This document shows positions 386-53,590 of a stretch of DNA of 64,000 nucleotides, piece after piece. Each line of letters begins with the position of its first letter. The first letter of the stretch is position 1. The notes below the pieces were generated by a model, which had not been told where the DNA came from, ran no database searches, and saw nothing but the letters and a program-made list of their open reading frames with translations. The stretch covers positions 36,682-100,681 of the forward strand of contig JBAQNP010000039.1 in the NCBI GenBank assembly GCA_049303905.1, in the 5' to 3' direction. A program made the translations under genes and the position numbers. Source of the stretch: Candidatus Moraniibacteriota bacterium. GTDB lineage: Bacteria > Patescibacteriota > Minisyncoccia > Moranbacterales > UBA2206.

Positions 386-398
386 TTAATTTCTATTA

Positions 399-433
399 CA
401 TGTTTTATGTTATATGTTTCATGTTTCATGACT
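399..433. repeat. Heptad (CATGAAA)n-like element, copy 1, immediately 5' of the GT4 start codon
   Basis: Minus strand reads GTCATGAAACATGAAACATATAACATAAAACATG (7-nt period). It is about 85% identical to the copy at 24064-24126. Confidence 0.55.
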
Positions 434-781: not shown

Positions 782-1765
782 ATGAAACTAATCATAAACA
801 TACCCGCTTATAATGAAGAGAAGGATCTTGGAAAAACAATTGAGCGAATCAAGGAAAGTTTTTCAAATGATTTCTATTCTAAAGAAGGCGCGCGCATTAC
901 TGAAAAATTAATTCAAGTAGTGGATGACGGCTCAAGCGACAATACCGCCGAAGTGGCCAGAGAAGCTGGAGCTGATATTGTTATTTCCTATAAACCTAAT
1001 CGAAGATTGGCCTATTCATTCAAACAAGCTGTGGAAAGTTCTCTTAAAAACGGTGCGGATTTCATGGTAAACATTGATGCGGATGGACAATTTGACCCCA
1101 ATGATATTCCTCAGTTGCTTTCGCCAGTTTTGAAAGGCGAGGCTGACATAGCAATTGCTAATCGCTTTGGTGAGTATAAGGCTAAAAACATTCCTTGGGT
1201 ACGAAGCTTTTTTAATCGTTTCGCCGCTTCTTTCATAGGATTTTTTCTAAATTACAAAACTAATGATCTGACTTGCGGATTTCGTGCTCACTCTCGAGAG
1301 GCAATGCTTCGACTAAATCTCACCAATGTTTATTTCACCTATACTCAAGAAACGATCATTGATGCCATTGGAAAAAATTTGAAATTAAAATGGGTTCCAA
1401 TCACAGTCACCTATTTTGACAATCGCGAAGCCAAAATAACAAAATCAATTTTCAAATTTATCAATAATTCTGGAAAAATAATTTTGAAAGCTGTTCGTGA
1501 TGTGAGACCACTAAAGTTTTTTGGCTGGCCAGGAGTATTTTTGGTGACTGTCGGACTTGTTGGTTTTTCTATCTTTCTTTTTCACTATTTCCAAGGTTTT
1601 AAAATTTCTCCCTATTTAAATTACATTATTTTTTCCGCCATCTCAATGCTTCTGGGAATTCAACTTATCGTTTTCGCTTTGATTGCTGATATGATCAAAT
1701 CTTCTCGCCAACTAACTGAAGAACTTTTCTACCAATGGAAGAAAGATAAATACAATAAATCATAA
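782..1765 (+). CDS. GT2 family polyprenol-phosphate glycosyltransferase (GtrB/DPM1-like) with C-terminal TM helices
   Basis: N-terminal IINIPAYNEE...VVDDGSSDNT...NIDADGQ (GT2 DXD region); two hydrophobic helices near the C-terminus, as in the GtrB/ArnC/DPM1 family. Confidence 0.8.
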   Translation: MKLIINIPAYNEEKDLGKTIERIKESFSNDFYSKEGARITEKLIQVVDDGSSDNTAEVAREAGADIVISYKPNRRLAYSFKQAVESSLKNGADFMVNIDADGQFDPNDIPQLLSPVLKGEADIAIANRFGEYKAKNIPWVRSFFNRFAASFIGFFLNYKTNDLTCGFRAHSREAMLRLNLTNVYFTYTQETIIDAIGKNLKLKWVPITVTYFDNREAKITKSIFKFINNSGKIILKAVRDVRPLKFFGWPGVFLVTVGLVGFSIFLFHYFQGFKISPYLNYIIFSAISMLLGIQLIVFALIADMIKSSRQLTEELFYQWKKDKYNKS

Positions 1766-1770
1766 AGTCA

Positions 1771-2889
1771 ATGAAAATATTATTCATCTCTCACTCCTAT
1801 CCCCCAATTCTTGGCGGAGTGGAAAGTCAAAACTATAATTTAGCCCAGGGACTTTCAAAAATTTCTCAAGTTAAAATTATCGCCAATGGTCGTGGTAAAT
1901 GGTGGCTTCCAGTTTTTGTGCCGATAACTTTCCTGCGCGCCTTTTTTTTGATGATGAACTGCGACGCTTGTCTTTTGGGCAATGGAGTTCTGGCGCCAAT
2001 AGGGATAGCTTTGAAATTTTTTCATCCCAAGAAAAAGTTTTTTTCTGTTGTGCATGGACTTGATATAACTTTCGCTAATAAGAAAGGAATTTTACCAAAA
2101 ATTTATAAAGCTATTAATATTCCTTCAATCAAAAAAATTGATAAGCTTTTTATGGTAGGAAATTTCACAATTGAAGCCGCCGTCAAAGCTGGGGTGCCTA
2201 AGGAAAATTGTGTTTTTATTCCTAATGGAGTTTTTATTGAAAACTTCAGAAAAGAATTTTCCCGAAAAGATTTGTCCACACTATGGGCAAAAGACACTGC
2301 TGACAAAAAAGTTATTTTACGCCTTGGACGATTTGTTCCGCATAAAGGCACAGCTTGGTTTATCAAAAATATAATGCCGCGTTTACCGGAAAATGTAATT
2401 CTGTTTGCTGTAGGAGGTCGCGTTGACAAAAATACCGCTGGCGATCCGGATAATTTTGAAGATTGTGAAAAAGAAATAACAGACAATAATCTAGAAGATC
2501 GAGTGAAGCTTATCCCCAATATTCCACAAAGGGATTTAGAGGTCTTATTAAACACTGCTGATTTAGTTGTCGCTCCCAACATTCATTATAAAAGTTCTTC
2601 AGAAGGATTCGGTATCAACGCTATTGAGGCCGCAGCTTGCGAAAGAGTTGTAATTGCTTCAAATATGCAAGGTTTAGCTGATGCAATCAAAGACGGTAAG
2701 AATGGTTTCTTAGTTGAGAGCGAAAACATCGAACAATGGGTCAAAAAAATCAACGCTATTTTTTCCGCCGGACCGGAATTTGCTAAAAATTTTGGGACTA
2801 TGGCGGGAAAATATGTAGAAGAAAATTTCACTTGGAAAAATATTTCAAAAAGATATTTGGAAGAGATGGAGAAAGCAAGTAGAAAGTAG
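1771..2889 (+). CDS. GT4 family glycosyltransferase
   Basis: MKILFISHSYPPILGGVE N-terminus; C-terminal EGFGINAIEAAACERVVIAS...GKNGFLVE (GT4 E-x7-E region). Confidence 0.8.
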   Translation: MKILFISHSYPPILGGVESQNYNLAQGLSKISQVKIIANGRGKWWLPVFVPITFLRAFFLMMNCDACLLGNGVLAPIGIALKFFHPKKKFFSVVHGLDITFANKKGILPKIYKAINIPSIKKIDKLFMVGNFTIEAAVKAGVPKENCVFIPNGVFIENFRKEFSRKDLSTLWAKDTADKKVILRLGRFVPHKGTAWFIKNIMPRLPENVILFAVGGRVDKNTAGDPDNFEDCEKEITDNNLEDRVKLIPNIPQRDLEVLLNTADLVVAPNIHYKSSSEGFGINAIEAAACERVVIASNMQGLADAIKDGKNGFLVESENIEQWVKKINAIFSAGPEFAKNFGTMAGKYVEENFTWKNISKRYLEEMEKASRK

Positions 2890-2971
2890 CAAGTAGTAAG
2901 CAGAAGACTTGCCCGCCGTTTATCTGCCGATGAGGCAGGATGAGGCGTGGTAGAAAGTATTAAGCAGAAAA

Positions 2972-20315: not shown

Positions 20316-21302
20316 TTATAAATTGATAAAAGAAGTCATTGATTTCTGGCCTTTAATTTTGATTATCGCGTATTGTTTTTTAATATTAAGCGATGGCATG
20401 TCAATATAATCAATACCAGCGAAGGTCGAACTTTTAGCCGTATGTTTATGACCGCTCGCAATCAAAATCACTTTATCCTTGTATTTTGTAAGCAATTCTT
20501 CAATTTCAATACTGTTTAACAGGCCGTATAAAGGATGATGAATAAAAATTATGTTCTGATTATTTTCTTGGAGTTTTTCTTCTAACCATTTTTTTTCTTT
20601 TTCCGGAATAAATCCGGCGTAAGCTCCCGGTTTTTCTCTGTCTCTTTCAACATCTTCACCTGTAGGAAACCAATAATTGGCATCTAAGACTATAATTTGA
20701 TAATTTTTTGCCATGAAAGAATAGTAACTGTCAGAACCAATAAGTTTTTCATAATCCTTTTTGCGCAAACTAAACATTTCATGATTTCCCGCTACATGAT
20801 AGCGCGGCTCAAAACCCAATAGACTTTCATCAGCCCTTTTCCATTCAGCAATACCTTCCGCTATTGGCTGTTTGCCATTTCCATCAACATTCCTATTCTC
20901 AATAAAATCACCCAGCTCAATGATAAAATCCGGTTTTTCTGGATTAGCTTCTCCTTTTTCTTGTATATGCACTTCTTTGGCAAATTTCGCTATCATTGAA
21001 TAGATACTTCCTTCAGCATGAGAATCTGACATCACTCCAATGACAAGATCCGATCTTCTCTTTGTCATATTTTCACTAACAAAATTTTCATCTACTCCAC
21101 TTGAAATATCAATATTGTTTTGAAATTGATTTGGATAAGTTTTTTTCGAATTAAAACTAAAACTAAAAATTGCAACTACAAGAGCAATTGCAATAATAAG
21201 AATAAGTAATATTATCTTTGCTTTTTTTCTATTTTTTAAGATAAATTCTTTGAAATTTTTAATTTTCAGATTCTTAATTTTATCAATTATTTTTTTCTTC
21301 AT
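20316..21302 (-). CDS. membrane-anchored calcineurin-like metallophosphoesterase
   Basis: TM anchor; motifs MSDSHAEG, GDFIE, GNHEM, IHHP, GHKH all intact. Confidence 0.8.
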   Translation of the reverse strand: MKKKIIDKIKNLKIKNFKEFILKNRKKAKIILLILIIAIALVVAIFSFSFNSKKTYPNQFQNNIDISSGVDENFVSENMTKRRSDLVIGVMSDSHAEGSIYSMIAKFAKEVHIQEKGEANPEKPDFIIELGDFIENRNVDGNGKQPIAEGIAEWKRADESLLGFEPRYHVAGNHEMFSLRKKDYEKLIGSDSYYSFMAKNYQIIVLDANYWFPTGEDVERDREKPGAYAGFIPEKEKKWLEEKLQENNQNIIFIHHPLYGLLNSIEIEELLTKYKDKVILIASGHKHTAKSSTFAGIDYIDMPSLNIKKQYAIIKIKGQKSMTSFINL

Positions 21303-21332
21303 AAAAAATTTAATTACTAATTAGATATTCCA

Positions 21333-22304
21333 TCAATTATATAAATTTAAAAATTCCACCTCAGATACATTTCTTTTTACGCTAATTATCATATATTGTT
21401 TTTGATGATATAAGGAAGGAATATCGGCATAGTGACTTCCAGCAAAATTAAAAGTTCTAGCTCTATTTTTATGACCATTAGAAATCAAAATAATGCTTTC
21501 TTGGTATTTTTTTAGTAACTTTTCAATTTCGACACTGTTTGTCAAATTATATATTGGGTGATGGATGAAGATAATATTACGATTACTTTCCTTAAGTTTT
21601 CCCTCCAACCATGTTTTTTCTTTTGATGGGATATATCCAGTATAAGCCCCTGGTTTCTGTTTTTCTGGATCGACATCCCCCTCAGAACCTTGCCAATACA
21701 TCGCGTCTAAAACTATTATCTGATACCCTTTTACATTAAAGGAATAATATGAATCAAAACCAGTTAGATCTTTATAATCTTTTTTGTTGAGACTAAGCAT
21801 TTCATGATTACCAATCACATGATAACGAGGCTCATAAGCCAAAAGAGCATCGGCTTTTCTGAAATCTGCTACGCCGTCCTCTCTGGGTTGCCTCCCGCCT
21901 CCCGTTTTAGTTCTATTTTCGATAAAATCCCCCACTTCAATCACAAAATCAGGTCTTATCTCATGTTCTTGCAATTTTTTAGCAAAATCTCCAATTAACT
22001 TAAACCTGTCGTCAATAGCTTGAGAATCCGCCATAACGCCAATTACCAAATCTGGTGCTACCTTATAATAGTTCTCGCTCACAAATTCTTCATCTTTAAT
22101 ATCATCTTCATTTGCACCTTCGTTTTGAACCGCAGTATTCTGACAAATTTTTTCAATCGAAAAATTATAAAAGCTTTTCCCAAAAGAACTGAAACTAAAA
22201 ATTACAATAGCAATTATAACTAAAAAAACCAGCAATGTTATTTTTGCTTTCTTTTTGTCTTTCCAAAAAATATTTTTTATCTTATCCACTATCTTTTTTT
22301 TCAT
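21333..22304 (-). CDS. metallophosphoesterase paralog with substituted metal-ligand histidines (possibly inactive)
   Basis: Tandem paralog of 20316-21302. Motif I reads MADSQAID (His to Gln) and the last motif reads GHKNRA (His to Asn); GDFIE, GNHEM and IHHP are retained. Confidence 0.7.
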   Translation of the reverse strand: MKKKIVDKIKNIFWKDKKKAKITLLVFLVIIAIVIFSFSSFGKSFYNFSIEKICQNTAVQNEGANEDDIKDEEFVSENYYKVAPDLVIGVMADSQAIDDRFKLIGDFAKKLQEHEIRPDFVIEVGDFIENRTKTGGGRQPREDGVADFRKADALLAYEPRYHVIGNHEMLSLNKKDYKDLTGFDSYYSFNVKGYQIIVLDAMYWQGSEGDVDPEKQKPGAYTGYIPSKEKTWLEGKLKESNRNIIFIHHPIYNLTNSVEIEKLLKKYQESIILISNGHKNRARTFNFAGSHYADIPSLYHQKQYMIISVKRNVSEVEFLNLYN

Positions 22305-22322: not shown

Positions 22323-23660
22323 TTATTTATTAAACGGCCGGCCGATTGAGTGATATTCAAAACCAAGCTCTTGCATTTTTTTCGGGTCATAGAGAAGACG
22401 CCCATCAAAAATCAGTGGCTGTTTCAATCTTTTTTTCATTTCAGAAAAATCCGGGGTGCGAAAATCTTTCCATTCGGTGATGATGAGCAGGGCGTCAGTT
22501 CCGCTAAGCGCCTCGTATTTGTTCTCAAAATAACTAATGGCCGGATTATCGCCAAAATATTCCGGGGTTTTTGCCATCTTCATCGCTTCCGGATCATGGG
22601 CTTGAATTTTTGCACCTTTTTCAATTAATTTATTTATAATAGTAATGGCCGAAGATTCGCGCATATCATCTGTCCCAGCCTTAAACGCCAAACCCCAAAC
22701 GGAAAAAATCTTATCTGCCAAATTTTCTCCTAAATTTTCCAAAACCATATCAGCCAAAACATGTTTTTGTTTTTCATTAGTTTTTAAAGTTTGTAAAAAC
22801 ATCTCTGCTTCATAACCAAAATCTTTGGCAATCTTCACTAAAGCTTTCACGTCTTTCGGAAAACAACTTCCACCAAACCCAGGACCGGCATACATAAACG
22901 GCTCGCCAATTCTTGGATCAGCGCCAATAGCTTTTCTCACTAAATCAAAATCCGCCCCTACTCGCACACAAATGTTGGCTAATTCATTATTCACTGAAAT
23001 TTTCGCCGCTAAGAAACTATTGGCCGCATATTTGACTGTTTCTGCTGTTTTTGGATCCATGGCGTAAAAACGGCCCTCCCGACGCATAAAAGGCGCGTAC
23101 AGCTCTTCCATGGTTTTTAGCACCTTCTCATCATCTGCCCCCACTACAATGCGACTAGGCTCTAGAAAATCTTTCACCGCCGTTCCTTGTGCCAAAAACT
23201 CTGGATTACTCACTACATGAAAAGAAATATCTACTCCTCTTTTTTCTAGCTCTTCAGAAATAGTTTTTTTGACTAGCTCAGCCGTTCCTACAGGCACCGT
23301 TGATTTATCCACGATAATGAGTTCGTGTTCCATCATTTGCCCGATCGATCTTGCCACTGAAATTACATGACTAAGATCGGCGCTTCCATCTTCATTAGGT
23401 GGAGTGCCAACAGCAATAAAAACTATTCCGCTGGAATCCAACGCATCTTTCAAATCGGTGGTAAAATGCAAAGTTTCATTTTTCAAATTTCGCGCCACTA
23501 ATTCGTCCAATCCTTTTTCATGCAATGGAACTTTTCCACTCTTAAATTGTTCCACTTTTTCCAGATTATTATCCACACAAATCACGCTGTTGCCCATTTC
23601 AGCAAAACAAGCACCCGTGACTGATCCGACATATCCAGTTCCAATAATTGCTATCTTCAT
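22323..23660 (-). CDS. ugd: UDP-glucose 6-dehydrogenase (nucleotide-sugar dehydrogenase family)
   Basis: MKIAIIGTGYVGSVTGACFAEMGN...GGSCFPKDV...family signature. The start is taken at the internal Met (CAT at 23658-23660) because the upstream 10 codons of the track ORF are the heptad repeat element. Confidence 0.9.
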   Translation of the reverse strand: MKIAIIGTGYVGSVTGACFAEMGNSVICVDNNLEKVEQFKSGKVPLHEKGLDELVARNLKNETLHFTTDLKDALDSSGIVFIAVGTPPNEDGSADLSHVISVARSIGQMMEHELIIVDKSTVPVGTAELVKKTISEELEKRGVDISFHVVSNPEFLAQGTAVKDFLEPSRIVVGADDEKVLKTMEELYAPFMRREGRFYAMDPKTAETVKYAANSFLAAKISVNNELANICVRVGADFDLVRKAIGADPRIGEPFMYAGPGFGGSCFPKDVKALVKIAKDFGYEAEMFLQTLKTNEKQKHVLADMVLENLGENLADKIFSVWGLAFKAGTDDMRESSAITIINKLIEKGAKIQAHDPEAMKMAKTPEYFGDNPAISYFENKYEALSGTDALLIITEWKDFRTPDFSEMKKRLKQPLIFDGRLLYDPKKMQELGFEYHSIGRPFNK

Positions 23661-23690
23661 GACATTCATGAAACATGAAACATGTAGCAT
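23658..23690. repeat. Heptad CATGAAA element, copy 2 (opposite orientation to copies 1, 3 and 4)
   Basis: Plus strand reads CATGACATTCATGAAACATGAAACATGTAGCAT. It lies between the ugd start and the stop of the four-helix-bundle gene. Confidence 0.55.
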
Positions 23691-23700
23691 ACAACAATAA

Positions 23701-24069
23701 TTAGGATTTATCTTCTATTCCCTTAATTGTTGTCCACAACATCGCTCCAATTTCTTCAGCTAAATTAATTAATTTTTTATAATCTTCTTCCTTAATATAC
23801 CCTTCTCTTTCTGAAAAATATAATAAATATTTTGTTTCCTTTAGTGATCCATAAGACATCTGTAAAAAATATTTCAACTGATTATCCCCTAGTCTTGCAT
23901 AACCTTCGATATAATTCAACACTACCGATAAAGATGCTCTGCGTAATTGAGAAGTAATCCCGTAAATTTCTTCTTTTGGAAAAGTTTTCGTAACTCTGTA
24001 TGAGAGATAGGCAAACTCATCTAATTTCTTTTTTAATATTTTATGAAAAGTTTCCTTATCCTGTTTCAT
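23701..24069 (-). CDS. four-helix-bundle protein (23S rRNA intervening-sequence protein family, PF05635-like)
   Basis: 122 aa; SYRVTKTFPKEE...QLRRASLSVVLNYIEGYAR...fits the TIGR02436/PF05635 pattern. Confidence 0.7.
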   Translation of the reverse strand: MKQDKETFHKILKKKLDEFAYLSYRVTKTFPKEEIYGITSQLRRASLSVVLNYIEGYARLGDNQLKYFLQMSYGSLKETKYLLYFSEREGYIKEEDYKKLINLAEEIGAMLWTTIKGIEDKS

Positions 24070-24126
24070 GTTTTTGTATTTTGTATTTTGTCTTATGCTT
24101 CATGTTATATGTTTCATGCTTCATGA
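24064..24126. repeat. Heptad CATGAAA element, copy 3
   Basis: Minus strand reads TTCATGAAGCATGAAACATATAACATGAAGCATAAGACAAAATACAAAATACAAAAACATGAAA (7-nt period). It overlaps the last codons (HEA stop) of the GT2 gene and sits directly 5' of the four-helix-bundle gene ATG. Confidence 0.55.
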
Positions 24127-25049
24127 ATCTCCTTTATCGAGTAGTTCATTCTATTTTGGCTTTTGAAATAGTTCTTGATTAGGATATCTGCCAAAAGTCC
24201 GAAAATGAAAAGCTGGATGCCGATCATAATGAAAAAAACACCTATAAGTGGCCAGATTTTATCGGAAATCGATCCGCCCATGATTTTTTCCACCACCATC
24301 CAAATTAAAATTAAAAATCCCAAGAAAGACAAGAATATTCCTGATCCGCCAAAAAGATGCAGGGGTCGGTTGGCATATTTTCCCCAAAACCAAATGGACA
24401 CCATATCCACAAAACCTTTCATTCCGCGTTTCCAATTATATTTCGTCACTCCACTAGTACGCGGATGATGTGAAACCTTCACCTCTCCGACTTTATAGCC
24501 TTGAAGTTCCAAAAGCGCCGGAATGAAGCGATGCATCTCACCAAAAAGATCCACATCTTTGAAACATTCTCGTCTATAGGCCTTGAGTGAACAGCCGGAA
24601 TCATGAATTTTGTCATGAATCAGAATTTTTCGCAATAAATTAGCGGTGCGAGAAAATATTTTTTTGCTCAAAGAATCTTTTCTTTGCCATCTCCAGCCGG
24701 AAACTATATCATAGCCCTTTTCTATTTCCGCCAAAAGCAAAGGGATATCCGCCGGATCATTTTGCAGGTCCCCGTCCATCATCACAATAATCTCACCCAG
24801 TGAATTTTTCACACCAGCATCAAAAGCAGCGGTCTGTCCAAAATTTCTTCTAAATTTGATGAGTTTGAGTGGTGTGAGTCCTTGGCAATTCTCCACGGTC
24901 TTGTCGCGTGAACCATCATCGATAAAAATAATTTCAAAACTTTTCTCTAATTTTTCACAAGCTTCTTTGATTTTTCTATGAAGCTCGCGAACATTCCCCT
25001 CTTCATTGTACAGCGGAACCACCACTGAGATTTTTTTGTTTTCTTGCAT
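24114..25049 (-). CDS. GT2 family polyprenol-phosphate glycosyltransferase (GtrB/DPM1-like) with C-terminal TM helices
   Basis: ISVVVPLYNEEGN...IFIDDGSRDKT...MMDGDLQNDP; two C-terminal hydrophobic helices. Confidence 0.8.
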   Translation of the reverse strand: MQENKKISVVVPLYNEEGNVRELHRKIKEACEKLEKSFEIIFIDDGSRDKTVENCQGLTPLKLIKFRRNFGQTAAFDAGVKNSLGEIIVMMDGDLQNDPADIPLLLAEIEKGYDIVSGWRWQRKDSLSKKIFSRTANLLRKILIHDKIHDSGCSLKAYRRECFKDVDLFGEMHRFIPALLELQGYKVGEVKVSHHPRTSGVTKYNWKRGMKGFVDMVSIWFWGKYANRPLHLFGGSGIFLSFLGFLILIWMVVEKIMGGSISDKIWPLIGVFFIMIGIQLFIFGLLADILIKNYFKSQNRMNYSIKEIHEA

Positions 25050-25831: not shown

Positions 25832-25839
25832 ACTAATCG

Positions 25840-25872
25840 CAATTTTCAACTTTCAATTATCAATTTTCAACC
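25840..25872. repeat. Direct repeats (CAATTTTCAAC x2) forming the left arm of inverted repeats flanking the second four-helix-bundle gene
   Basis: AATTTTCAACC at 25862-25872 is the exact reverse complement of GGTTGAAAATT at 26383-26393. A second unit TCAACTTTCAA is mirrored by TTGAAAGTTGA at 26370-26380. Confidence 0.5.
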
Positions 25873-25902
25873 AATAATCAATTTTAAAATTATAATTTAT
25901 CC

Positions 25903-26271
25903 ATGAGCAATCAACGAGAGTATAATCTAGAAGAAAGATTGGCAGTTTTCGCTGAAAAAGTTATCGACCTCATGAAAAAACTTCCTAATAATCCCATAAA
26001 CCTCCGCATGATTCCTCAAGAAACAGCAGCAGCCGGTTCATCAGGTGCGAATTATTGCGAAGCGACGGAAGCTGAAAGCAAGAAAGATTTTATTCATAAA
26101 ATTGGGATTGTAAAAAAAGAATTAAAAGAAAGTAAACACTGGCTAAGACTATTAGCTCGAGCAAATCCAGAATTTGCAGAAGAATTCAGAGAATTATGGA
26201 AAGAAAATCAAGAATTAATTCTAATATTTTCTAAAACCCTGAAAACTTGCAGGGAAGGAAAAGAAAAATAA
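25903..26271 (+). CDS. four-helix-bundle protein (PF05635-like), second copy
   Basis: 122 aa; GANYCEATEAESKKDFIHKIGIVKKELKESKHWLRLL, typical of the family. Confidence 0.7.
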   Translation: MSNQREYNLEERLAVFAEKVIDLMKKLPNNPINLRMIPQETAAAGSSGANYCEATEAESKKDFIHKIGIVKKELKESKHWLRLLARANPEFAEEFRELWKENQELILIFSKTLKTCREGKEK

Positions 26272-26366
26272 AAGTTTCAATATTCAACCGAACAATGATC
26301 AATTAATTTTCAAGTAAAAAAACTTTCAATGATCATTGAGAATTTAAAAATTAAAAATTAATTGAA

Positions 26367-26395
26367 CGGTTGAAAGTTGAGCGGTTGAAAATTAG
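26367..26395. repeat. Right arm of inverted repeats flanking the four-helix-bundle gene; also part of a local long hairpin (26284-26375)
   Basis: CGGTTGAAAGTTGAGCGGTTGAAAATTAG. Additionally, TTCAACCGAAC (26284-26294) against GAACGGTTGAA (26365-26375) forms an 11-bp inverted repeat. Confidence 0.5.
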
Positions 26396-26430
26396 CAATC
26401 TCATTATAATAATTTAATTAAAAAAACCAT

Positions 26431-26775: not shown

Positions 26776-26809
26776 AGAAGTTTTTAAAGTTATAAAGTTT
26801 TTAAAGTTC

Positions 26810-34559: not shown

Positions 34560-35662
34560 ATATTTTTTATTAATGTTTCATATTTTTCTAACATAATTTC
34601 AAAAGAAAAATCTTTTTCCACTTTTTTTCTAGCATTATTAGCTAGTTCATTCGCATTGTTCTTATTCTCAAGCATCCATTTCATTTTTTGAAACAGTTCT
34701 GCCACATCCCCCGCCATTATTAAAATTCCTTCCTTTTTATTTTCTATTTGTTCAGAAATTCCATAAACATCAGTTGCGATTATTGGCAGATTAAATGCCA
34801 TCGCTTCTAGAACTACTCTTGGGAAAGATTCAATGTAGGAATTACAAACAAAAAAATCACTCATCAAAAAATATTCATATGCTCCAAGAGATTCCTTGAT
34901 GATTTTAATATTCTCAGCGTAACCACTCTCTTGAATTATTTCATTAATTCTTCTTTCATACAAACTGTCTCTCCCTCCAATGATAAGGAACTTGAGCTTT
35001 CTATTTCTTGTTTTATTAAGTAGTTTTATAGCAGCTTGAGTAAATTCTAATTGCCCTTTACGCAAGCATACTGCACCCACAATACAAAAAATTAAATCAG
35101 TATCTGCAATTCCATATTTTCTTCTCATGCCCTGCTTAGAATTTTTTTTAATAAAAGCGTTAATTTTCCCTAAATCAAGCCCATTATATATTGTCACAAA
35201 ATTATTTCTTTCCATATCTCCATATATTTCCATAGTACTTTTTGCAACAAAAACAACTCGAGCAACTTCCGAAAAAAATTCTTTTTTTAAATCAGCATAT
35301 TTATTGAAATATACCTCCCTCTCACTTTCCCTTATGCACCAAACTATTTTATTTTTTTCGACATTTAGATTTTTTATAAATTTATATCCGAGAATAGTGT
35401 TAACAAAAAAAACATCCACATCCATTAATAATTGTCTCGGGCAAGTTCTCGAAAAAAAATCAAAAACAGACACATCAACACCTTCATTTTTATAAAAGTC
35501 AGTAAGTGGTCCGTCTTGCGGAGATATTACACTCACTTCATAGCCCAACCTTTTAAAACCTTTGACCAAATAAAAAAGCGACCATGTTGCACCCTCTGGC
35601 TCCAAATTGTGTGAAACAAATAAAATTCTTTTAGTTTTCTTCTTTAATTCTAAATTGTTCAT
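34547..35662 (-). CDS. GT4 family glycosyltransferase
   Basis: RILFVSHNLEPEGATWSL...ESFPRVVLEAMAFNLPIIATDVYGISEQI. Confidence 0.8.
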   Translation of the reverse strand: MNNLELKKKTKRILFVSHNLEPEGATWSLFYLVKGFKRLGYEVSVISPQDGPLTDFYKNEGVDVSVFDFFSRTCPRQLLMDVDVFFVNTILGYKFIKNLNVEKNKIVWCIRESEREVYFNKYADLKKEFFSEVARVVFVAKSTMEIYGDMERNNFVTIYNGLDLGKINAFIKKNSKQGMRRKYGIADTDLIFCIVGAVCLRKGQLEFTQAAIKLLNKTRNRKLKFLIIGGRDSLYERRINEIIQESGYAENIKIIKESLGAYEYFLMSDFFVCNSYIESFPRVVLEAMAFNLPIIATDVYGISEQIENKKEGILIMAGDVAELFQKMKWMLENKNNANELANNARKKVEKDFSFEIMLEKYETLIKNICVE

Positions 35663-38528
35663 TACTTAGTGATAAATTTATATTATAATATGGATCGCTT
35701 TTAATATATTTTTTCCATGTATTTTTGAAATAATTTAGTTCATTTAAATTATCTCCAAATCCTCGCGTTTTTCCCTCGTGATGGTAAAGAATTGCGCTTG
35801 GATTATATACTATCCTACTTCCAATCTCCAAAATTTTCAAACAATAATCAACATCTCCATATGAAACTGCTAAATCTTTTTCATTAAATCCGTCAACTGT
35901 CTTAAAAAGACTTTTTTTAGTCAATAAACATGCGGCTGTAACAGCAGAATAATTCTTTAGAACAAGAGCATAACTTAAATACCCAGAATCGTTTCTATTC
36001 ATCAGCTTATGAGCATGTCCAGCAGAATTATCATTAAGTCCAAGCACAACACCAGCGTGCTGGATTCTATTATCAGCATAAATTAATTTTGCCCCTATAG
36101 CTCCAATTTTTTTATCCACCGAGATTGATCCGACCATTTCTAAAAGCCAATTTGAAGAGATAATTTCTGTATCATTATTAAGAAATAGAATAAGCTCTGA
36201 ATTTATTTTGTCAACCGCCAGATTATTTATTTTGGAAAAATTAAATTTATATGTTTTAATATCAATAACAGAAATTTTTTCATTTTTAAAATATTGAAAT
36301 GTTTCCTTTTCAATACTATTATTATTAATAACTAAAATCTCGTAATTGGAATAGTTCGTCTTTTCTTTTATACTGTCAATGCATCTTTTTAATAATGGGA
36401 TATTATCCTTTGTCGGAATAATAATTGTAACTTTTTCTTGATAATCTTTCGGGTTAAATTTAAGTTTATATACGCCAATTCGGGATTTTTCAGCAAAATC
36501 AGGAATTACTGCAGTTGCCTTAATGCCTCTGCGATCTAACGCTTCCTGAACCGCCACTTGTCCTAGTCTTATGCTTGCAGGTTTTTCAATAGTAGAATAC
36601 GCCACCGAACCAGGAATGCTTCGCCAATGATACAATATTTTTGGGATATGCCCAATTTTTTCAGTTACCTCAGCCAATCTAAGTAAAAAATCAAAATCTT
36701 GAGAACCATCAAATTCGCTTCTAAATCCTTTCAAATCTATAAATATTGATTTTCGCAAAAACTTAAAGTGACTTATATAACAATACGACAATAACAATTC
36801 CGGACTCCAATCAGGTTTAAATTGCGGATCATAACGAAAACCATTTTCATCAATTTTGTCATCATCGCTATATATCAAATCAAGCTCTTTATTTTTATTT
36901 AGCAATTTAATATTTTCATATAGAGCTTCTGGCTCCAGCTCATCATCATGATCGAGAAAAGCAATAAATTCTCCCGTTGCCATTTCCACACCTTTATTTG
37001 TCGCTCCAGATATACCCAAGTTATCATCTAAATACAGAACCTTAACTCTATGATCTCTATTTTTAAATTCGTTAAGAATTTTCTTGATTATTATTTTGTC
37101 AGATTTGTCATCAATAATACACAACTCCCAATTCTCATAATATTGATAAAGTACAGAAAATATTGCCTTTCTTAGAAAAATTTCATCCGTATTATAAACA
37201 GGCAAAATAATTGAGACTTTAGGTTTATAACTTAAATATTTTATTTCCTTTTCAATATTTCTATAATCAATTATTTTTTTCTCTCTTTCTATATTACTTA
37301 TCCATTTTTTATAAGGTATATCATTATTTTCAAAATCTTTCTTTTTTTCTAAAAATCCTTCCCCATAAAAAATGTAATTCCATATCCTCAGTGTTACATT
37401 TCTGAAGCCTTCTGTCCTAAATGAAATGACCGCTTGCTGATATAAAACTCTTATTTTTCTAAGAAATCCCAATACTCGATCAATCATTCTAAAAATCGGT
37501 TGAGGAATTTGTTTTTGAATATTGTTTATATAGAAACAATAGAAAAAATTGGGAATTCTCCATTGTAAAGATTTTTTGATCGCGTTAAGTTCGAAATGTT
37601 GCTGTTGCAATATATTCTCTTTATTTTCAAGTTCTTGATTTTTTATTCCTATTTCTTGATCTTTTTGTTGAATTTCTTGATCCTTTTGCTGAATAGATTG
37701 ATCTTTTCGCTGAATTTCTTGGTTCTTTTCTTGGATAATTTGATCTTTTTGCTGAATTTCTTGGTTCTTTAAATATTCTTTATACTTTTCATATAATGGA
37801 TTTATTCTTCCGTCATACAAAATTTTGTGCTTCAAAAAAATGTATTCATATACTCCCTCCACTCCTTTATCGTCTGCATATAATTTTTTATTCCTTGATT
37901 TTTTCCTAATTCTGTAAAAAAAATGAACTTTTGGAATTTGGTAAACAATATCATTTTCTTTTAAAAATGACAACCAAAAATCCCAATCCTCAAGACCATC
38001 TTTCATTTTTTCATCATAACCACTTGTGCTATCATAATCTAATCTTCTAAACATTGCTGTACAAAAAATCATATTTCCAAATAATATTTTTTCATAAGAA
38101 TATTCTGGAAGATTCCAAATACCCAAAGCATCTCCAAATAATTCAACCTTACAATATACTAACTTTATTTTTGGTTTGTTTTCTAAAATTCCTACCGCTT
38201 CCTGCAAATAATCTTTTGATATAAGATCATCTGAATCCAAAGGAAGAATATATTTACCACTACTATTTAATATGCCATTATTGCGGGCTACTGATGGTCC
38301 TTGATTTTCTTGTTTGATATATTCAAAACGCTTATCTTGATTGCAATATTTTTGAGCAATATCTTTTGTGTTATCAGTAGAACCATCGTCTATGATTATA
38401 CATTCCCAATTTTTATAATCCTGCTCCAAAACCGAATCTAAAGTTTCAGATAAAAAAATCGCCTGATTATAAGAAGGAATAATAACAGAAACTAATGGAT
38501 CATTATTTTTATCACTTATCTCAAACAT
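35631..38528 (-). CDS. multi-domain protein with three GT2 glycosyltransferase domains and a central Q/K/D/E heptad coiled-coil repeat
   Basis: Domain 1 VSVIIPSYNQ...IIIDDGSTDNT; domain 2 VSIILPVYNTDE...CIIDDKS; domain 3 VTIIIPTKDN...LVINNNS. Between domains 1 and 2 lies QEIQQKDQIIQEKNQEIQRKDQSIQQKDQEIQQKDQEI. Confidence 0.8.
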   Translation of the reverse strand: MFEISDKNNDPLVSVIIPSYNQAIFLSETLDSVLEQDYKNWECIIIDDGSTDNTKDIAQKYCNQDKRFEYIKQENQGPSVARNNGILNSSGKYILPLDSDDLISKDYLQEAVGILENKPKIKLVYCKVELFGDALGIWNLPEYSYEKILFGNMIFCTAMFRRLDYDSTSGYDEKMKDGLEDWDFWLSFLKENDIVYQIPKVHFFYRIRKKSRNKKLYADDKGVEGVYEYIFLKHKILYDGRINPLYEKYKEYLKNQEIQQKDQIIQEKNQEIQRKDQSIQQKDQEIQQKDQEIGIKNQELENKENILQQQHFELNAIKKSLQWRIPNFFYCFYINNIQKQIPQPIFRMIDRVLGFLRKIRVLYQQAVISFRTEGFRNVTLRIWNYIFYGEGFLEKKKDFENNDIPYKKWISNIEREKKIIDYRNIEKEIKYLSYKPKVSIILPVYNTDEIFLRKAIFSVLYQYYENWELCIIDDKSDKIIIKKILNEFKNRDHRVKVLYLDDNLGISGATNKGVEMATGEFIAFLDHDDELEPEALYENIKLLNKNKELDLIYSDDDKIDENGFRYDPQFKPDWSPELLLSYCYISHFKFLRKSIFIDLKGFRSEFDGSQDFDFLLRLAEVTEKIGHIPKILYHWRSIPGSVAYSTIEKPASIRLGQVAVQEALDRRGIKATAVIPDFAEKSRIGVYKLKFNPKDYQEKVTIIIPTKDNIPLLKRCIDSIKEKTNYSNYEILVINNNSIEKETFQYFKNEKISVIDIKTYKFNFSKINNLAVDKINSELILFLNNDTEIISSNWLLEMVGSISVDKKIGAIGAKLIYADNRIQHAGVVLGLNDNSAGHAHKLMNRNDSGYLSYALVLKNYSAVTAACLLTKKSLFKTVDGFNEKDLAVSYGDVDYCLKILEIGSRIVYNPSAILYHHEGKTRGFGDNLNELNYFKNTWKKYIKSDPYYNINLSLSNEQFRIKEEN
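37636..37770. repeat. 21-bp tandem DNA repeat encoding the QKDQEIQ coiled-coil heptads
   Basis: Plus strand carries repeated units ...TTGCTGAATTTCTTGATCCTT... with about 6 visible copies. Confidence 0.6.
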
Positions 38529-42403: not shown

Positions 42404-44329
42404 TTGGCAAAAGGATTAAAATATGCTAAAATTAAACATATGGAAATAAAAAAATTAAAAAAGAGACTTTTCTTTCTTTCGTTTTTTGTTTTTAATTTGG
42501 TTTTTTTATTTGGAAGTCAATTTTTAAAAGTAGAAGCGACTTACTCTTCTGAAGGGATTGGTTTTTATGCGCAAACAAATTCTTTTGGATATACTGCTGA
42601 GGGCATTGCATTTTATACTTACACATCCCAAGTGGATGAAACATTGCCGGTATATAGATTTGTTAATTCAACTAGCGGAGACCATTTTTATACTGCATCG
42701 GAAAATGAAAAAACAGCCGTATTAAATAATCCTCAATGGGGATATACAGCAGAAGGAATTGCGTTTTATGTTTACACATCCCAAGTGAATGAAACATTGC
42801 CGGTATATAGATTTGTTAATTCAACTAGCGGAGACCATTTTTATACTGCATCGGAAAATGAAAGAAATTCTTTAAACAACAATCCTCAGTGGGGATATAC
42901 GGGAGAAGGAATTGCATTTTATGTATTTGACACACAGTTAGCAACAACATCTCCCGTTTATAGATTTTATGCTCCATCTACCGGAGATCATTTCTATACT
43001 GCTTCAGAAAGCGAAAAAAATAAATTAACTCTGTCTCCTGTTTATAGATTTTATGCTCCATCTACCGGAGATCATTTCTATACTGCTTCAGAAAATGAAA
43101 AAAGCATCGTAACAAACACATCCCAAAGCGGATATTTGCCTGAAGGTATAGCGTTTTATGCGTATACCACACAATTCAATGGGACTGTTCCAGTTTATAG
43201 ATTTTATGCTTCATCTACAGGAGATCATTTCTATACTACTTCGGAAAGCGAAAGAGATTCCCTAAATAATAATCCTCAATGGGGATATACCGCCGAAGGT
43301 ATAGAGTTTTATGCATATACCACACAAGCTGACGGAACCGTTCCGGTTTATAGATTTTATGCTCCATCTACCGGAGATCATTTCTATACTGCTTCAGAAA
43401 ATGAAAAAAATAATCTACTACTCTCTGAGTTAGGACCAGAAATTCCCGTTGGACTTTGGAACTATGGGTCCAGAACAGCTTTAAAGGATGATCCTTTCAA
43501 AATCAGTGCCAACAAAGCATACAATATAAAAAATAGAGATGGAAATATAGTTGCTCAAATAGATGGAGGCACACAAACTAGAGTGACTTATGACAGCGAT
43601 TCATATCTCAAAGCTTATGGTTCAGTTTCTGAAACAAGATCCAAAAATGTTTTCTATTTTGACGCAGTTGACGGTGACAATTCAACTTTGATTTTTGATG
43701 TCAATCGTCCAAGCTCCACCTATGACCAATATCGCGGAAAAATAAAAATCCAATATACCGACAGTGCCAACCTTTGGGTCATTAATACCCTACCATTAGA
43801 ACACTATGCTTGGGGCGCAGGAGAATTTACTGGAACCGGACCAGCGGAGCATAGCAAAGTAATGTCAACTATCTTTAGAACCTACGGCTACCAATATATA
43901 TCCTGGACTTCAACCATCTATGTTCCCTATGGATTTAGAATTAAAAGCGATTCCGGCAATCAAATTTATCGCGGTTATGATTGGGAAACGACCTATCCCA
44001 ATGTGAAAGTTGCCGCTCAAGCCACGCGCGGAGTTATTGCGACCTATAACGGTGATGTCGCTCTCACTCCATACAGTTCTTGGAGTGATGGCAGAACCAG
44101 AAGTTTTGAAGAAAGATGGGGATCGAAGGATTATCCTTGGTGTCGATCAGTTTCTGATCCCTACGGAAAAAACTCAACCATGACCACAAAGCAATTGGAA
44201 GATGCTGGTAATCATATGGTTGGACTCATTGCCAATGGATCTTTGAATCTCGCTAATAATCATAATTGGGATTGGCAAAGAATAATGAAATATTACTATA
44301 CCGGAATTTCCCTTAACACGGCCTACTAA
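42404..44329 (+). CDS. secreted protein: about 7 tandem 50-aa YRF...GDHFYT repeats + C-terminal SpoIID/LytB domain
   Basis: Repeats GYTAEGIAFYVYTSQVNETLPVYRFVNSTSGDHFYTASENE. The C-terminus LEHYAWGAGE...FRTYGYQY...QIYRGYDWE...YSSWSDGRT fits SpoIID/LytB. The likely true start is the internal Met at 42440 (signal peptide). Confidence 0.65.
   Translation: MAKGLKYAKIKHMEIKKLKKRLFFLSFFVFNLVFLFGSQFLKVEATYSSEGIGFYAQTNSFGYTAEGIAFYTYTSQVDETLPVYRFVNSTSGDHFYTASENEKTAVLNNPQWGYTAEGIAFYVYTSQVNETLPVYRFVNSTSGDHFYTASENERNSLNNNPQWGYTGEGIAFYVFDTQLATTSPVYRFYAPSTGDHFYTASESEKNKLTLSPVYRFYAPSTGDHFYTASENEKSIVTNTSQSGYLPEGIAFYAYTTQFNGTVPVYRFYASSTGDHFYTTSESERDSLNNNPQWGYTAEGIEFYAYTTQADGTVPVYRFYAPSTGDHFYTASENEKNNLLLSELGPEIPVGLWNYGSRTALKDDPFKISANKAYNIKNRDGNIVAQIDGGTQTRVTYDSDSYLKAYGSVSETRSKNVFYFDAVDGDNSTLIFDVNRPSSTYDQYRGKIKIQYTDSANLWVINTLPLEHYAWGAGEFTGTGPAEHSKVMSTIFRTYGYQYISWTSTIYVPYGFRIKSDSGNQIYRGYDWETTYPNVKVAAQATRGVIATYNGDVALTPYSSWSDGRTRSFEERWGSKDYPWCRSVSDPYGKNSTMTTKQLEDAGNHMVGLIANGSLNLANNHNWDWQRIMKYYYTGISLNTAY
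42575..43420. repeat. approximately 150-bp tandem DNA repeats (about 7 copies) inside the repeat-protein gene
   Basis: For example, 42640-42715 and 42790-42865 are nearly identical at the nucleotide level (TGAAACATTGCCGGTATATAGATTTGTTAATTCAACTAGCGGAGACCATTTTTATACTGCATCGGAAAATGAAA). Confidence 0.7.
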
Positions 44330-53541: not shown

Positions 53542-53590
53542 ATGTTTTATTGTTTCATGTTTCATGCTTCATGTTTCATGATACATGATT
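53539..53590. repeat. Heptad CATGAAA element, copy 4, spanning a GT4 stop / epimerase start junction
   Basis: Minus strand reads ATCATGAAACATGAAGCATGAAACATGAAACAATAAAACATATG. It encodes the GT4 C-terminus ...IMKHEA-stop and ends in the epimerase ATG. Confidence 0.55.

Follow-up and report, generated by a model that had tools for sequence, protein, structure and literature searches.

Introduction

Intervening sequences (IVSs) in the 23S rRNA genes of Leptospira, Coxiella (S23p) and Azospirillum are bounded by terminal inverted repeats that form a stem, with a PF05635 open reading frame (ORF) in its loop. In Coxiella, the IVS stem carrying the S23p ORF is excised by RNase III, and cleavage within the stem has been shown experimentally (PMC4990558). 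The present analysis concerns a stretch of 64,000 nucleotides from Candidatus Moraniibacteriota bacterium (contig JBAQNP010000039.1, positions 36,682 to 100,681; hereafter the window), in which a PF05635 gene for a four-helix-bundle (4HB) protein lies between inverted arrays of degenerate (CATGAAA)n heptads, wedged between two genes of a protein-coding operon. These arrays are probably the two ends of an IVS-type foldback cassette that carries the PF05635 gene and has lodged in the operon.

Short tandem arrays at gene junctions have a literature of their own, and heptamers are cited in PMC4679880 as the commonest long simple repeats in bacteria. As described there, TAACTGA repeats immediately precede start codons that have no ribosome-binding site; they take in the upstream stop codon and bring stops in every frame. 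Two further papers report GGGAATC repeats in Xanthomonas, including 70 convergent pairs, alongside GGGGAYT repeats in Nostoc (PMC4692102), and short tandemly repeated repetitive (STRR) heptamer hairpins between hupS and hupL (PMC2670836). In the 5' untranslated region of H. influenzae hmw, a heptamer-repeat hairpin is cut by RNase III, and the number of repeats tunes expression (PMC12721329). Text searches of PMC4679880, PMC4692102 and PMC2670836 brought up no passage on PF05635, and nothing on flanking repeats of the PF05635 family was found in the literature searched by family names. Heptamer arrays and rRNA IVSs are each known, and their systematic union around non-rRNA PF05635 genes appears to be undescribed in the literature searched.

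Architecture of the cassette

The window, from a genome of 33% GC, contains four degenerate (CATGAAA)n arrays (c1 to c4), located at or a few bases from the positions given in the original prediction. All four have a period of 7 according to Tandem Repeats Finder, with no more than two to three identical units in a row (maximum 2.6). The 14-mer CATGAAACATGAAA has 15 matches in the window at up to two mismatches, against 2.2 ± 1.5 in shuffled sequence, and none of 100 shuffles reached 15; the resemblance of c1 and c3 at 28 of 32 positions can be read off their alignment as claimed. That c2 and c3 bracket a 122-amino-acid 4HB gene in inverted orientation is borne out by a repeat finder, which returned arms of 30 nt (23661–23690 and 24102–24131) that are 87% complementary and 411 nt apart. 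The second 4HB gene of the window also lies between inverted arrays, as had been noticed (25840–25872 and 26369–26393). The two further copies placed at gene junctions, c1 and c4, both exist, but c1 stands in a divergent intergenic region and is not internal to an operon.

All parts of the cassette around 4HB gene 1 are read from the minus strand. The upstream host gene encodes a family-2 glycosyltransferase (GT2; 24114–25049, minus strand), the last codons of which (..IHEA*) come from the first heptads of the upstream arm, the minus strand ending in ...ATT CAT GAA GCA TGA. This 5' arm, c3 (24064–24131, minus strand; pairing part 24102–24131), consists of about nine purine-rich heptads on the gene strand (CATGAAG CATGAAA CATATAA CATGAAG CATAAGA CAAAATA CAAAATA CAAAAA CATGAAA), the first of which include the GT2 TGA stop (24116–24114) and the last of which includes the 4HB ATG. 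The cargo, 4HB gene 1 (23701–24069, minus strand), encodes 122 amino acids and matches PF05635 with 98.9 bits (cutoff 33.8; E = 2.4e-28) and TIGR02436 with 101 bits (cutoff 24); both 4HB genes of the window exceed the cutoffs of these family models. The c2 array (23658–23700) carries CATGAAA on the plus strand and hence its complement on the gene strand, where the 3' arm (23661–23700, minus strand) reads as about five pyrimidine-rich heptads (TTATTGT TGTATGC TACATGT TTCATGT TTCATGA) that begin directly after the 4HB stop and end 5 nt short of the next ATG. This ATG belongs to the downstream host gene ugd, for UDP-glucose 6-dehydrogenase (22323–23660, minus strand), whose leader is the downstream arm and has no Shine-Dalgarno sequence. 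The Ugd protein assigns the window to a metagenome-assembled genome of Candidatus Moranbacteria.

As in an IVS, an ORF is thus enclosed by terminal inverted repeats able to form a long stem. The stem between the two arms closes the predicted RNA structure in the minimum-free-energy and the centroid fold alike (z = -3.15). The window as a whole gave no Rfam match at gathering thresholds, hence no rRNA, and the cassette does not lie inside a 16S or 23S rRNA helix. A replacement of the Shine-Dalgarno sequence by the arrays was also considered; the comparison is uninformative because even a loose Shine-Dalgarno sequence is found within 25 nt of the start in only 7 of the 53 window genes, and leaders are A/T-rich throughout.

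Distribution of the architecture

The same arrangement recurs around 4HB genes of the candidate phyla radiation (CPR). A scan based on the alignment of close 4HB relatives, with one genome per species, yielded 80 CPR loci (loci outside the window are designated by L numbers), and inverted heptad arrays are present in nearly all of them, with units such as CATGAAA, CATGTAA, CATATAA, CATGGAA, CTTGAAA, CAGTTAA and others. The association was quantified with an inverted-repeat (IR) score, obtained by comparing the 130-nt upstream flank of a gene with its 130-nt downstream flank in reverse complement, a score of at least 30 being taken as the cut-off and other genes of up to 260 amino acids in the same loci serving for comparison. 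In a first pass the 276 other genes had a median of 17 and a 95th percentile of 27, against a median of 33 for 4HB genes, and of the ten 'controls' with the highest scores, eight were members of other PF05635 subfamilies and had units of their own (CGTACAA, TAGAAAG, CCAAAAT, TTGATAGC and others), while one was a PDDEXK_3/GxxExxY gene. Once 4HB genes were marked by hidden Markov model (HMM), 69 of 96 4HB genes in CPR genomes and cyanobacterial plasmids reached a score of 30, as did only 5 of the 310 remaining small genes (Fisher p = 4.6e-49). The five include one bAvd-like 4HB gene missed by the HMM, one PDDEXK_3/GxxExxY gene and one GIY-YIG gene. The repeat unit tracks the 4HB subfamily.

Of 131 arrays adjoining 4HB genes, 113 have a period of 7 and the others a period of 8, with some 4.4 units per array. 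Arrays are purine-rich upstream (53/63) and pyrimidine-rich downstream (53/68); the median spacing is 6 nt between the upstream array and the ATG and 7 nt between the stop and the downstream array. Most cassettes (71/77) point the same way as the genes on either side, from which gaps of about 40 nt separate them, and 53 of 89 4HB genes have stops in all three frames within the 45 nt upstream. A foldback with the purine-rich arm first reads alike on both strands, and transcription therefore meets the stop-rich arm first in either orientation.

The two nuclease genes among the high scorers differ in their flanks. The PDDEXK_3/GxxExxY gene (L066, 6956–7342) lies between inverted TACAAGAT-type arrays, and the 99-amino-acid GIY-YIG gene (L214, 6003–6302) between the halves of a plain 20-nt inverted repeat; the cassette habit is therefore common to small nuclease genes.

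Beyond the CPR, a tblastn search against plasmids gave 26 records, nearly all cyanobacterial. Inverted heptad arms accompany 9 of the 13 cyanobacterial-plasmid 4HB genes inspected, with units GGGAAAA, TCAGGAG, GGGTGTA, GGCAGAA, GGGAACA, GGTGACA and GGAGATA; the other four comprise one gene with direct arrays on both sides, one with a one-sided array beside an ISL3 transposase, one with none, and L210, the Nostoc orthologue of L207, with the arms of L207. Some of these plasmid genes sit inside cas operons (L221, L222, L224), in the orders cas6-4HB-cas4 and cmr2-4HB-cmr3 (cmr2 being cas10/cmr2), and such insertions may account for the listing of PF05635 among cas-associated families. Direct arrays were seen at L222 (Pseudanabaena), where (AAAGCTA)~14 and (AAAGCCA)~10 occupy 330–440 and 806–900, and at L225 (Gemmatirosa, Gemmatimonadota), where CTCCTGC-type arrays lie on both sides of 435–797.

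The comparison that is decisive, on sequence grounds, for classifying the window cassette as a putative IVS-type element comes from Azospirillum. Rfam identifies locus L226 as a 23S rRNA gene (LSU, 647 bits). The ORF (426–797) of its IVS belongs to PF05635 (E = 2.4e-33), and the ends of this IVS are themselves inverted heptad arrays, TCAGAGGACGGATGACAGAGGACGGAGGACAGAAAG and its complement, which pair over 36 nt at 86% complementarity, 397 nt apart, in alternative 7-nt registers.

Inheritance, constraint and movement

The order GT2-4HB-ugd is common to the window and to L006, L007, L008 and L010, where 4HB identity ranges from 83 to 94% and tracks the identity of the neighbouring genes; the cassette at this site is therefore old and vertically inherited. 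Its absence is patchy. In L001, the closest relative found (Ugd 95% identical), and in L002–L005 (88%), GT2 adjoins ugd with no 4HB gene between them, and the second 4HB gene is missing as well, a 225-amino-acid GT2 gene being followed directly by DUF2304. Both empty spacers of L001 hold ORF-less hairpins of inverted tandem arrays built from GTTCATAAA-type 9-mers.

The downstream arm changes little across the five orthologous cassettes, with five units in each, and the upstream arm differs by whole units, with 9 heptads in the window, 11 in L006, 14 in L007, 4 in L008 and 5 in L010. The 40-nt downstream arm of the window is 92–95% identical to those of L006 and L007 and 80% to those of L008 and L010, the corresponding identities at third codon positions in the flanking genes being only 53–76% and 35–43%. 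In the 4HB ORF itself, identity with the orthologues at codon positions 1, 2 and 3 is 86–98, 91–98 and 58–75%. The 4HB protein is under purifying selection at this site, because position 3 is far less conserved than positions 1 and 2, and so is the downstream arm; neither is decaying.

The arms and the ORF together form the unit of homology where contexts differ. One example is the second cassette of the window, whose 4HB gene (25903–26271, plus strand; 122 amino acids; PF05635 47.3 bits, E = 2.6e-12; TIGR02436 65.5 bits) is only 23% identical to 4HB gene 1 at the protein level. Its arrays are of CAAYTTT-type short units: the upstream arm (25835–25902, plus strand) consists of CAATTTT, CAACTTT and CAATTAT units, and the downstream arm (26344–26396, plus strand; ..TTGAACGGTTGAAAGTTGAGCGGTTGAAAATTA) is complementary to it, the two sharing a pair of 11-nt matches at 100% complementarity, 510–513 nt apart. 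Relatives of this gene at 88–91% identity (L212, L215–L217) stand in unrelated gene contexts with their arms kept, reading ..TCAACCAATAATCAATTTT..ATG upstream and ..TTGAGCGGTTGAAAATTA downstream; the proximal upstream arm is kept in L215–L217, the downstream arm in L212 and L215–L217, and nucleotide similarity ends at the arm ends. Proteins of the first subfamily that are at least 80% identical likewise stand between unrelated neighbours in different CPR lineages. In the Peregrinibacteria loci L047 and L065, the cassette occupies one site in opposite orientations with homology confined to arrays and ORF, as expected from recombination between the arms. In these loci (L047, 3983–4710; L065, 3505–4360), a bAvd-like 4HB gene adjoins a different 4HB gene, and the pair has arrays in common.

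The description of 4HB genes as discrete cassettes ended by inverted arrays and polymorphic in presence is supported by these comparisons, and the presence/absence polymorphism among relatives that the original prediction had proposed as a check is found in L001–L005. Its suggestion of small mobile cassettes stands as far as these units are discrete, array-ended, polymorphic and found in varied contexts; at this site, however, the cassette is an old, vertically inherited one. The cassettes are not confined to junctions of glycan operons, being found also in cyanobacterial cas operons and plasmid backbones. Nor is the heptad element tied to 4HB genes, and 15 ORF-less inverted pairs were found in the CPR loci. 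An exact (CATGAAA)2.9 match occurs in at least 120 metagenome contigs of 26–70% GC, and only 1 of the 120 matches listed has a 4HB ORF within 200 nt, many others being hairpins or arrays beside stop or start codons; specificity of the element for 4HB genes is rejected on this count, and an array therefore does not imply a 4HB gene.

Proposed mechanism and points against it

Since no promoter-like or terminator-like site was found in a scan of the cassette, co-transcription with the operon is expected, and the cassette would have neither promoter nor terminator of its own. In the transcript, pairing of the arms could yield a stem of some 30 bp around a loop of roughly 400 nt that holds the 4HB frame. 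RNase III would probably cut this stem and segment the polycistronic RNA at the junction, as in rRNA IVSs and the hmw leader, with a possible effect on the expression of GT2 or ugd; such processing appears the most likely action because the predicted fold is closed by the arm stem and because precedents exist (PMC4990558, PMC12721329). The upstream arm would supply the three-frame stops and serve as the 4HB gene's leader, rich in A and devoid of a Shine-Dalgarno sequence, while the downstream arm would form the leader of ugd. Arms and ORF would relocate together between gene junctions and lineages and could flip in place through recombination of the arms, and loss of the ORF would apparently give rise to array hairpins that lack it or to solo arrays of that heptad type.

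Several observations speak against an IVS-type foldback cassette, or against parts of this scheme. Across 60 cassettes, sense-strand G.U pairs are not over-represented among the arm mismatches, 46 of which are G.U-compatible and 78 A.C, and duplex energies are -31.7 kcal/mol for the sense and -33.4 kcal/mol for the antisense strand. Strand-specific selection for a stem in the sense RNA thus finds no support in G.U counts or duplex energies, the bias being slightly opposite, and the RNA stem is therefore retained on the strength of geometry and precedent, not of covariation. A role of the arms as DNA, in recombination or mobility, would be equally compatible with the sequences. No convincing target-site duplication was seen at the cassette ends in two pairwise comparisons, no transposase was found, the sole ORF of the cassette being a four-helix bundle, nor did any recent near-identical copy turn up. 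Roughly one 4HB gene in four lacks a clear inverted flank, and the arrays are direct instead of inverted in the two non-CPR cases L222 and L225. Heptad arrays are also far more widespread than 4HB genes, and the arrays may be primary and the gene secondary. Finally, the cassette at this site behaves as a stable, vertically inherited gene.

Alternative explanations

The arrays could instead be host junction elements of the STRR, TAACTGA or GGGAATC kind, independent of 4HB genes and acting in translation initiation or coupling or in mRNA stability or processing, with the gene having landed, or being tolerated, in a pre-existing hairpin. This account is possible, though unlikely. It draws on the two solo arrays of the window, both in forward orientation before start codons: c1 (396–433, minus strand) lies 10 nt before a minus-strand ATG in the divergent intergenic region, and c4 (53546–53590, minus strand) contains the TGA stop of a family-1 glycosyltransferase (GT1) gene and ends 4 nt before an epimerase ATG, the arrangement in which TAACTGA repeats are described (PMC4679880). 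The c4 junction of L012 and L016 holds ORF-less inverted array hairpins built from other repeat units. Further in its favour are the hairpins at both empty sites of L001, the 192 arrays away from 4HB genes in the CPR loci, the single 4HB neighbour among the listed metagenome matches and the many hairpins and arrays there across 26–70% GC, together with the hupS/hupL hairpins and the 70 convergent GGGAATC pairs reported in PMC2670836 and PMC4692102. Against it, the arms travel with the ORF, and homology across contexts covers arms and ORF only. The empty-site hairpins of L001 use 9-mers that are unlike the arms of the filled sites. Short-period arrays reach 5.3 per kb in 4HB flanks, four times their density in other intergenic DNA (1.3 per kb; 0.22 per kb in coding DNA), and the repeat unit follows the 4HB subfamily.

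In another account, the heptads are binding sites of an oligomeric 4HB protein, whether for self-regulation, for action in trans on c1 and c4, or for propagation of the arrays. In its favour, repeat units differ between 4HB subfamilies. One heptad type stands at four sites of the window, where c1 and c4 have 66% and 73% of their 7-mers in common with the cassette arms; more generally, other arrays of a locus share 19% of their 7-mers with the resident 4HB arms but 4.2% with arms of other loci (p = 6e-5), and c1 and c4 fit this pattern. The arrays number about four to five units, and 2GSC, the structure of Xanthomonas XCC0516 and the closest solved one to the protein of 4HB gene 1, was deposited with five chains. 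The related protein Avd is an accessory protein that binds RNA and reverse transcriptase. The proposal is nevertheless doubtful. The PDDEXK_3/GxxExxY gene has the same arm architecture and no 4HB protein, ORF-less hairpins and arrays abound with no 4HB gene nearby, ORF-less copies derived from a cassette would account equally well for the units shared within a genome, and TIGR02436 proteins are not known to bind nucleic acids. The arrays may also be binding sites of a regulator acting at operon junctions, the alternative that the original prediction had offered.

A phase-variation device, in which slippage of heptad number tunes the expression of the 4HB gene or ugd, is very unlikely. Upstream-arm unit numbers do vary (9, 11, 14, 4 and 5 in the five orthologous cassettes), and heptamer number tunes hmw expression through an RNase III hairpin (PMC12721329), but the differences are seen between species and not within populations, and the downstream arm is constant in unit number. 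With at most two to three identical units in a row, the arrays are degenerate and therefore poor substrates for slippage, and do not qualify as a contingency locus.

Neutral slippage debris in AT-rich spacers, arranged in inverted fashion by chance, would suit a genome of this composition and the commonness of heptamers among long simple repeats (cited in PMC4679880), but is contradicted by the shuffle enrichment and the 4HB association and is highly improbable given a downstream arm far more conserved than synonymous sites and the same architecture in GC-rich genomes and in an rRNA IVS. Equally improbable is an identity of 4HB gene 1 with the Avd gene of a diversity-generating retroelement (DGR), with the repeats as DGR parts: PF05635 does include Avd-like proteins (PMC10053308) and there is a weak bAvd Pfam match (35.9 bits, cutoff 40), but the Avd equivalog model NF033474 gives 28 bits against a cutoff of 80, placing the protein outside it, glycosyltransferases and ugd surround the gene, a scan of adjacent genes showed no reverse transcriptase, and no template/variable repeat pair was found. 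The identity is rejected on the NF033474 score and the sugar-pathway gene context.

Other repeats and genes of the window

Heptads of other types occur elsewhere in the window. A solo array of (AAGTTTTTA)x3.6 at 26778–26808, with a different unit, ends 1 nt before the ATG of a GT2 gene (26810) at the DUF2304-GT2 junction. At 2870–2975, the junction between a GT4 gene and the next gene, AGNAAGT-type heptads (AGCAAGT AGAAAGT AGCAAGT AGTAAGC) flank a GC-rich hairpin (CTGCC GATGA GGCAG, within GCCCGCC...GGCGTGG), and the empty site of L002 (9880–9990) has the same layout, a GC-rich hairpin there standing between AATTCGT heptads. A Logan contig that matches window positions 1070–2908 identically stops right at the heptad array 2877–2905, and close 4HB homologues are often found on contigs of 1–3 kb (including L218); heptad arrays appear to break short-read assemblies.

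Longer repeats lie within genes. The 641-amino-acid gene at 42404–44329 contains 153-nt tandem repeats at 42587–43413 (with 84- and 390-nt periodicities, 77–95% matching), and the 965-amino-acid gene at 35631–38528 contains tandem repeats of 21 and 42 nt at 37618–37770. Directly 3' of ugd, two adjacent paralogous metallophosphoesterase genes (328 and 323 amino acids) occupy 20316–22304, where L001 and L006 have one copy.

Wider implications

A broader proposal, speculative and rather unlikely in its full form, is that PF05635 genes and short-period, mostly heptad, inverted arrays constitute one widespread family of self-propagating foldback elements, in which the 4HB oligomer would recognise its own heptad 'dialect' and promote the copying or maintenance of arrays. 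If true, such a family would explain ORF-containing and ORF-less rRNA IVSs, the intergenic heptamer repeats (STRR, TAACTGA, GGGAATC) and small genes wedged into operons (glycan, cas). Two puzzles of about thirty years' standing, the nature of IVS ORFs together with the mobility of IVSs, and the purpose of abundant intergenic heptanucleotide repeats, are linked by the occurrence of PF05635 genes with inverted heptad arrays in a 23S rRNA IVS, at CPR operon junctions and on cyanobacterial plasmids, including their cas operons. The cassettes also have practical consequences. They apparently break metagenome assemblies and interrupt conserved operons without polar damage, and they could mislead function prediction based on operon membership, 4HB genes being counted as 'cas-associated'.

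Comparison with known systems

Terminal inverted repeats bound a unit that occurs in different genomic contexts, as in transposons and MITEs (miniature inverted-repeat transposable elements), and the cassette resembles MITEs, repetitive extragenic palindromes (REPs) and BIMEs (bacterial interspersed mosaic elements) in that such repeats delimit a short intergenic element. Eukaryotic foldback transposons have inverted ends made of short tandem subrepeats in variable number. With these and with the MITE, REP and BIME classes the cassette shares the existence of ORF-less derivatives whose ends match those of ORF-bearing copies. It differs from all of them in that no transposase and no clear target-site duplication were found, in its low copy number per genome and in arm sequences that differ between cassette lineages. 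Homing-endonuclease gene cassettes are similar as small genes slotted precisely, and polymorphically, between conserved co-oriented genes, and PD-(D/E)XK (GxxExxY) and GIY-YIG genes with inverted-repeat flanks are present in the same data set; unlike these, the 4HB cargo is not known to act as a nuclease, and heptad arrays are no part of homing-endonuclease cassettes.

Heptamer repeats of the cyanobacterial STRR, TAACTGA (Beggiatoaceae, Cyanobacteria and Bacteroidetes) and GGGAATC kinds are likewise period-7 tandem arrays that recur at gene junctions, as the window arrays do at several loci, and their convergent pairs form hairpins between co-oriented genes (PMC4692102, PMC2670836). Arrays c1, c3 and c4 conform to the TAACTGA type (PMC4679880): a forward array before a start codon without a ribosome-binding site, with an upstream stop and stops in three frames. 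The window arrays differ in lineage (CPR Moranbacteria) and in unit, which is CATGAAA or, around the second 4HB gene, CAAYTTT, and they are the two ends of a gene cassette, unlike the described heptamer repeats. In the hmw leader, a heptamer array is one arm of a long RNA hairpin that affects the downstream gene (PMC12721329); its partner arm, however, is a G-rich non-repeat, the loop has no ORF, and the repeats are perfect and phase-variable.

The closest counterpart remains the ORF-containing 23S rRNA IVS. There are differences: the host transcript of the window cassette comes from a protein-coding operon (GT2, ugd), and its arms abut a stop and a start codon, whereas IVS arms replace the tip of an rRNA helix. 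RNase III excision is demonstrated for rRNA IVSs (PMC4990558) and is a proposal for the window cassette, while the 4HB protein of the window is clearly under purifying selection and Coxiella S23p has been reported as probably not made. The Azospirillum IVS nevertheless has arms that are heptad arrays with the purine-rich arm first, as in the window, and the two structures are close in their dimensions, arm length, complementarity and spacing being 36 nt, 86% and 397 nt in the rRNA gene, against 30 nt, 87% and 411 nt between GT2 and ugd.

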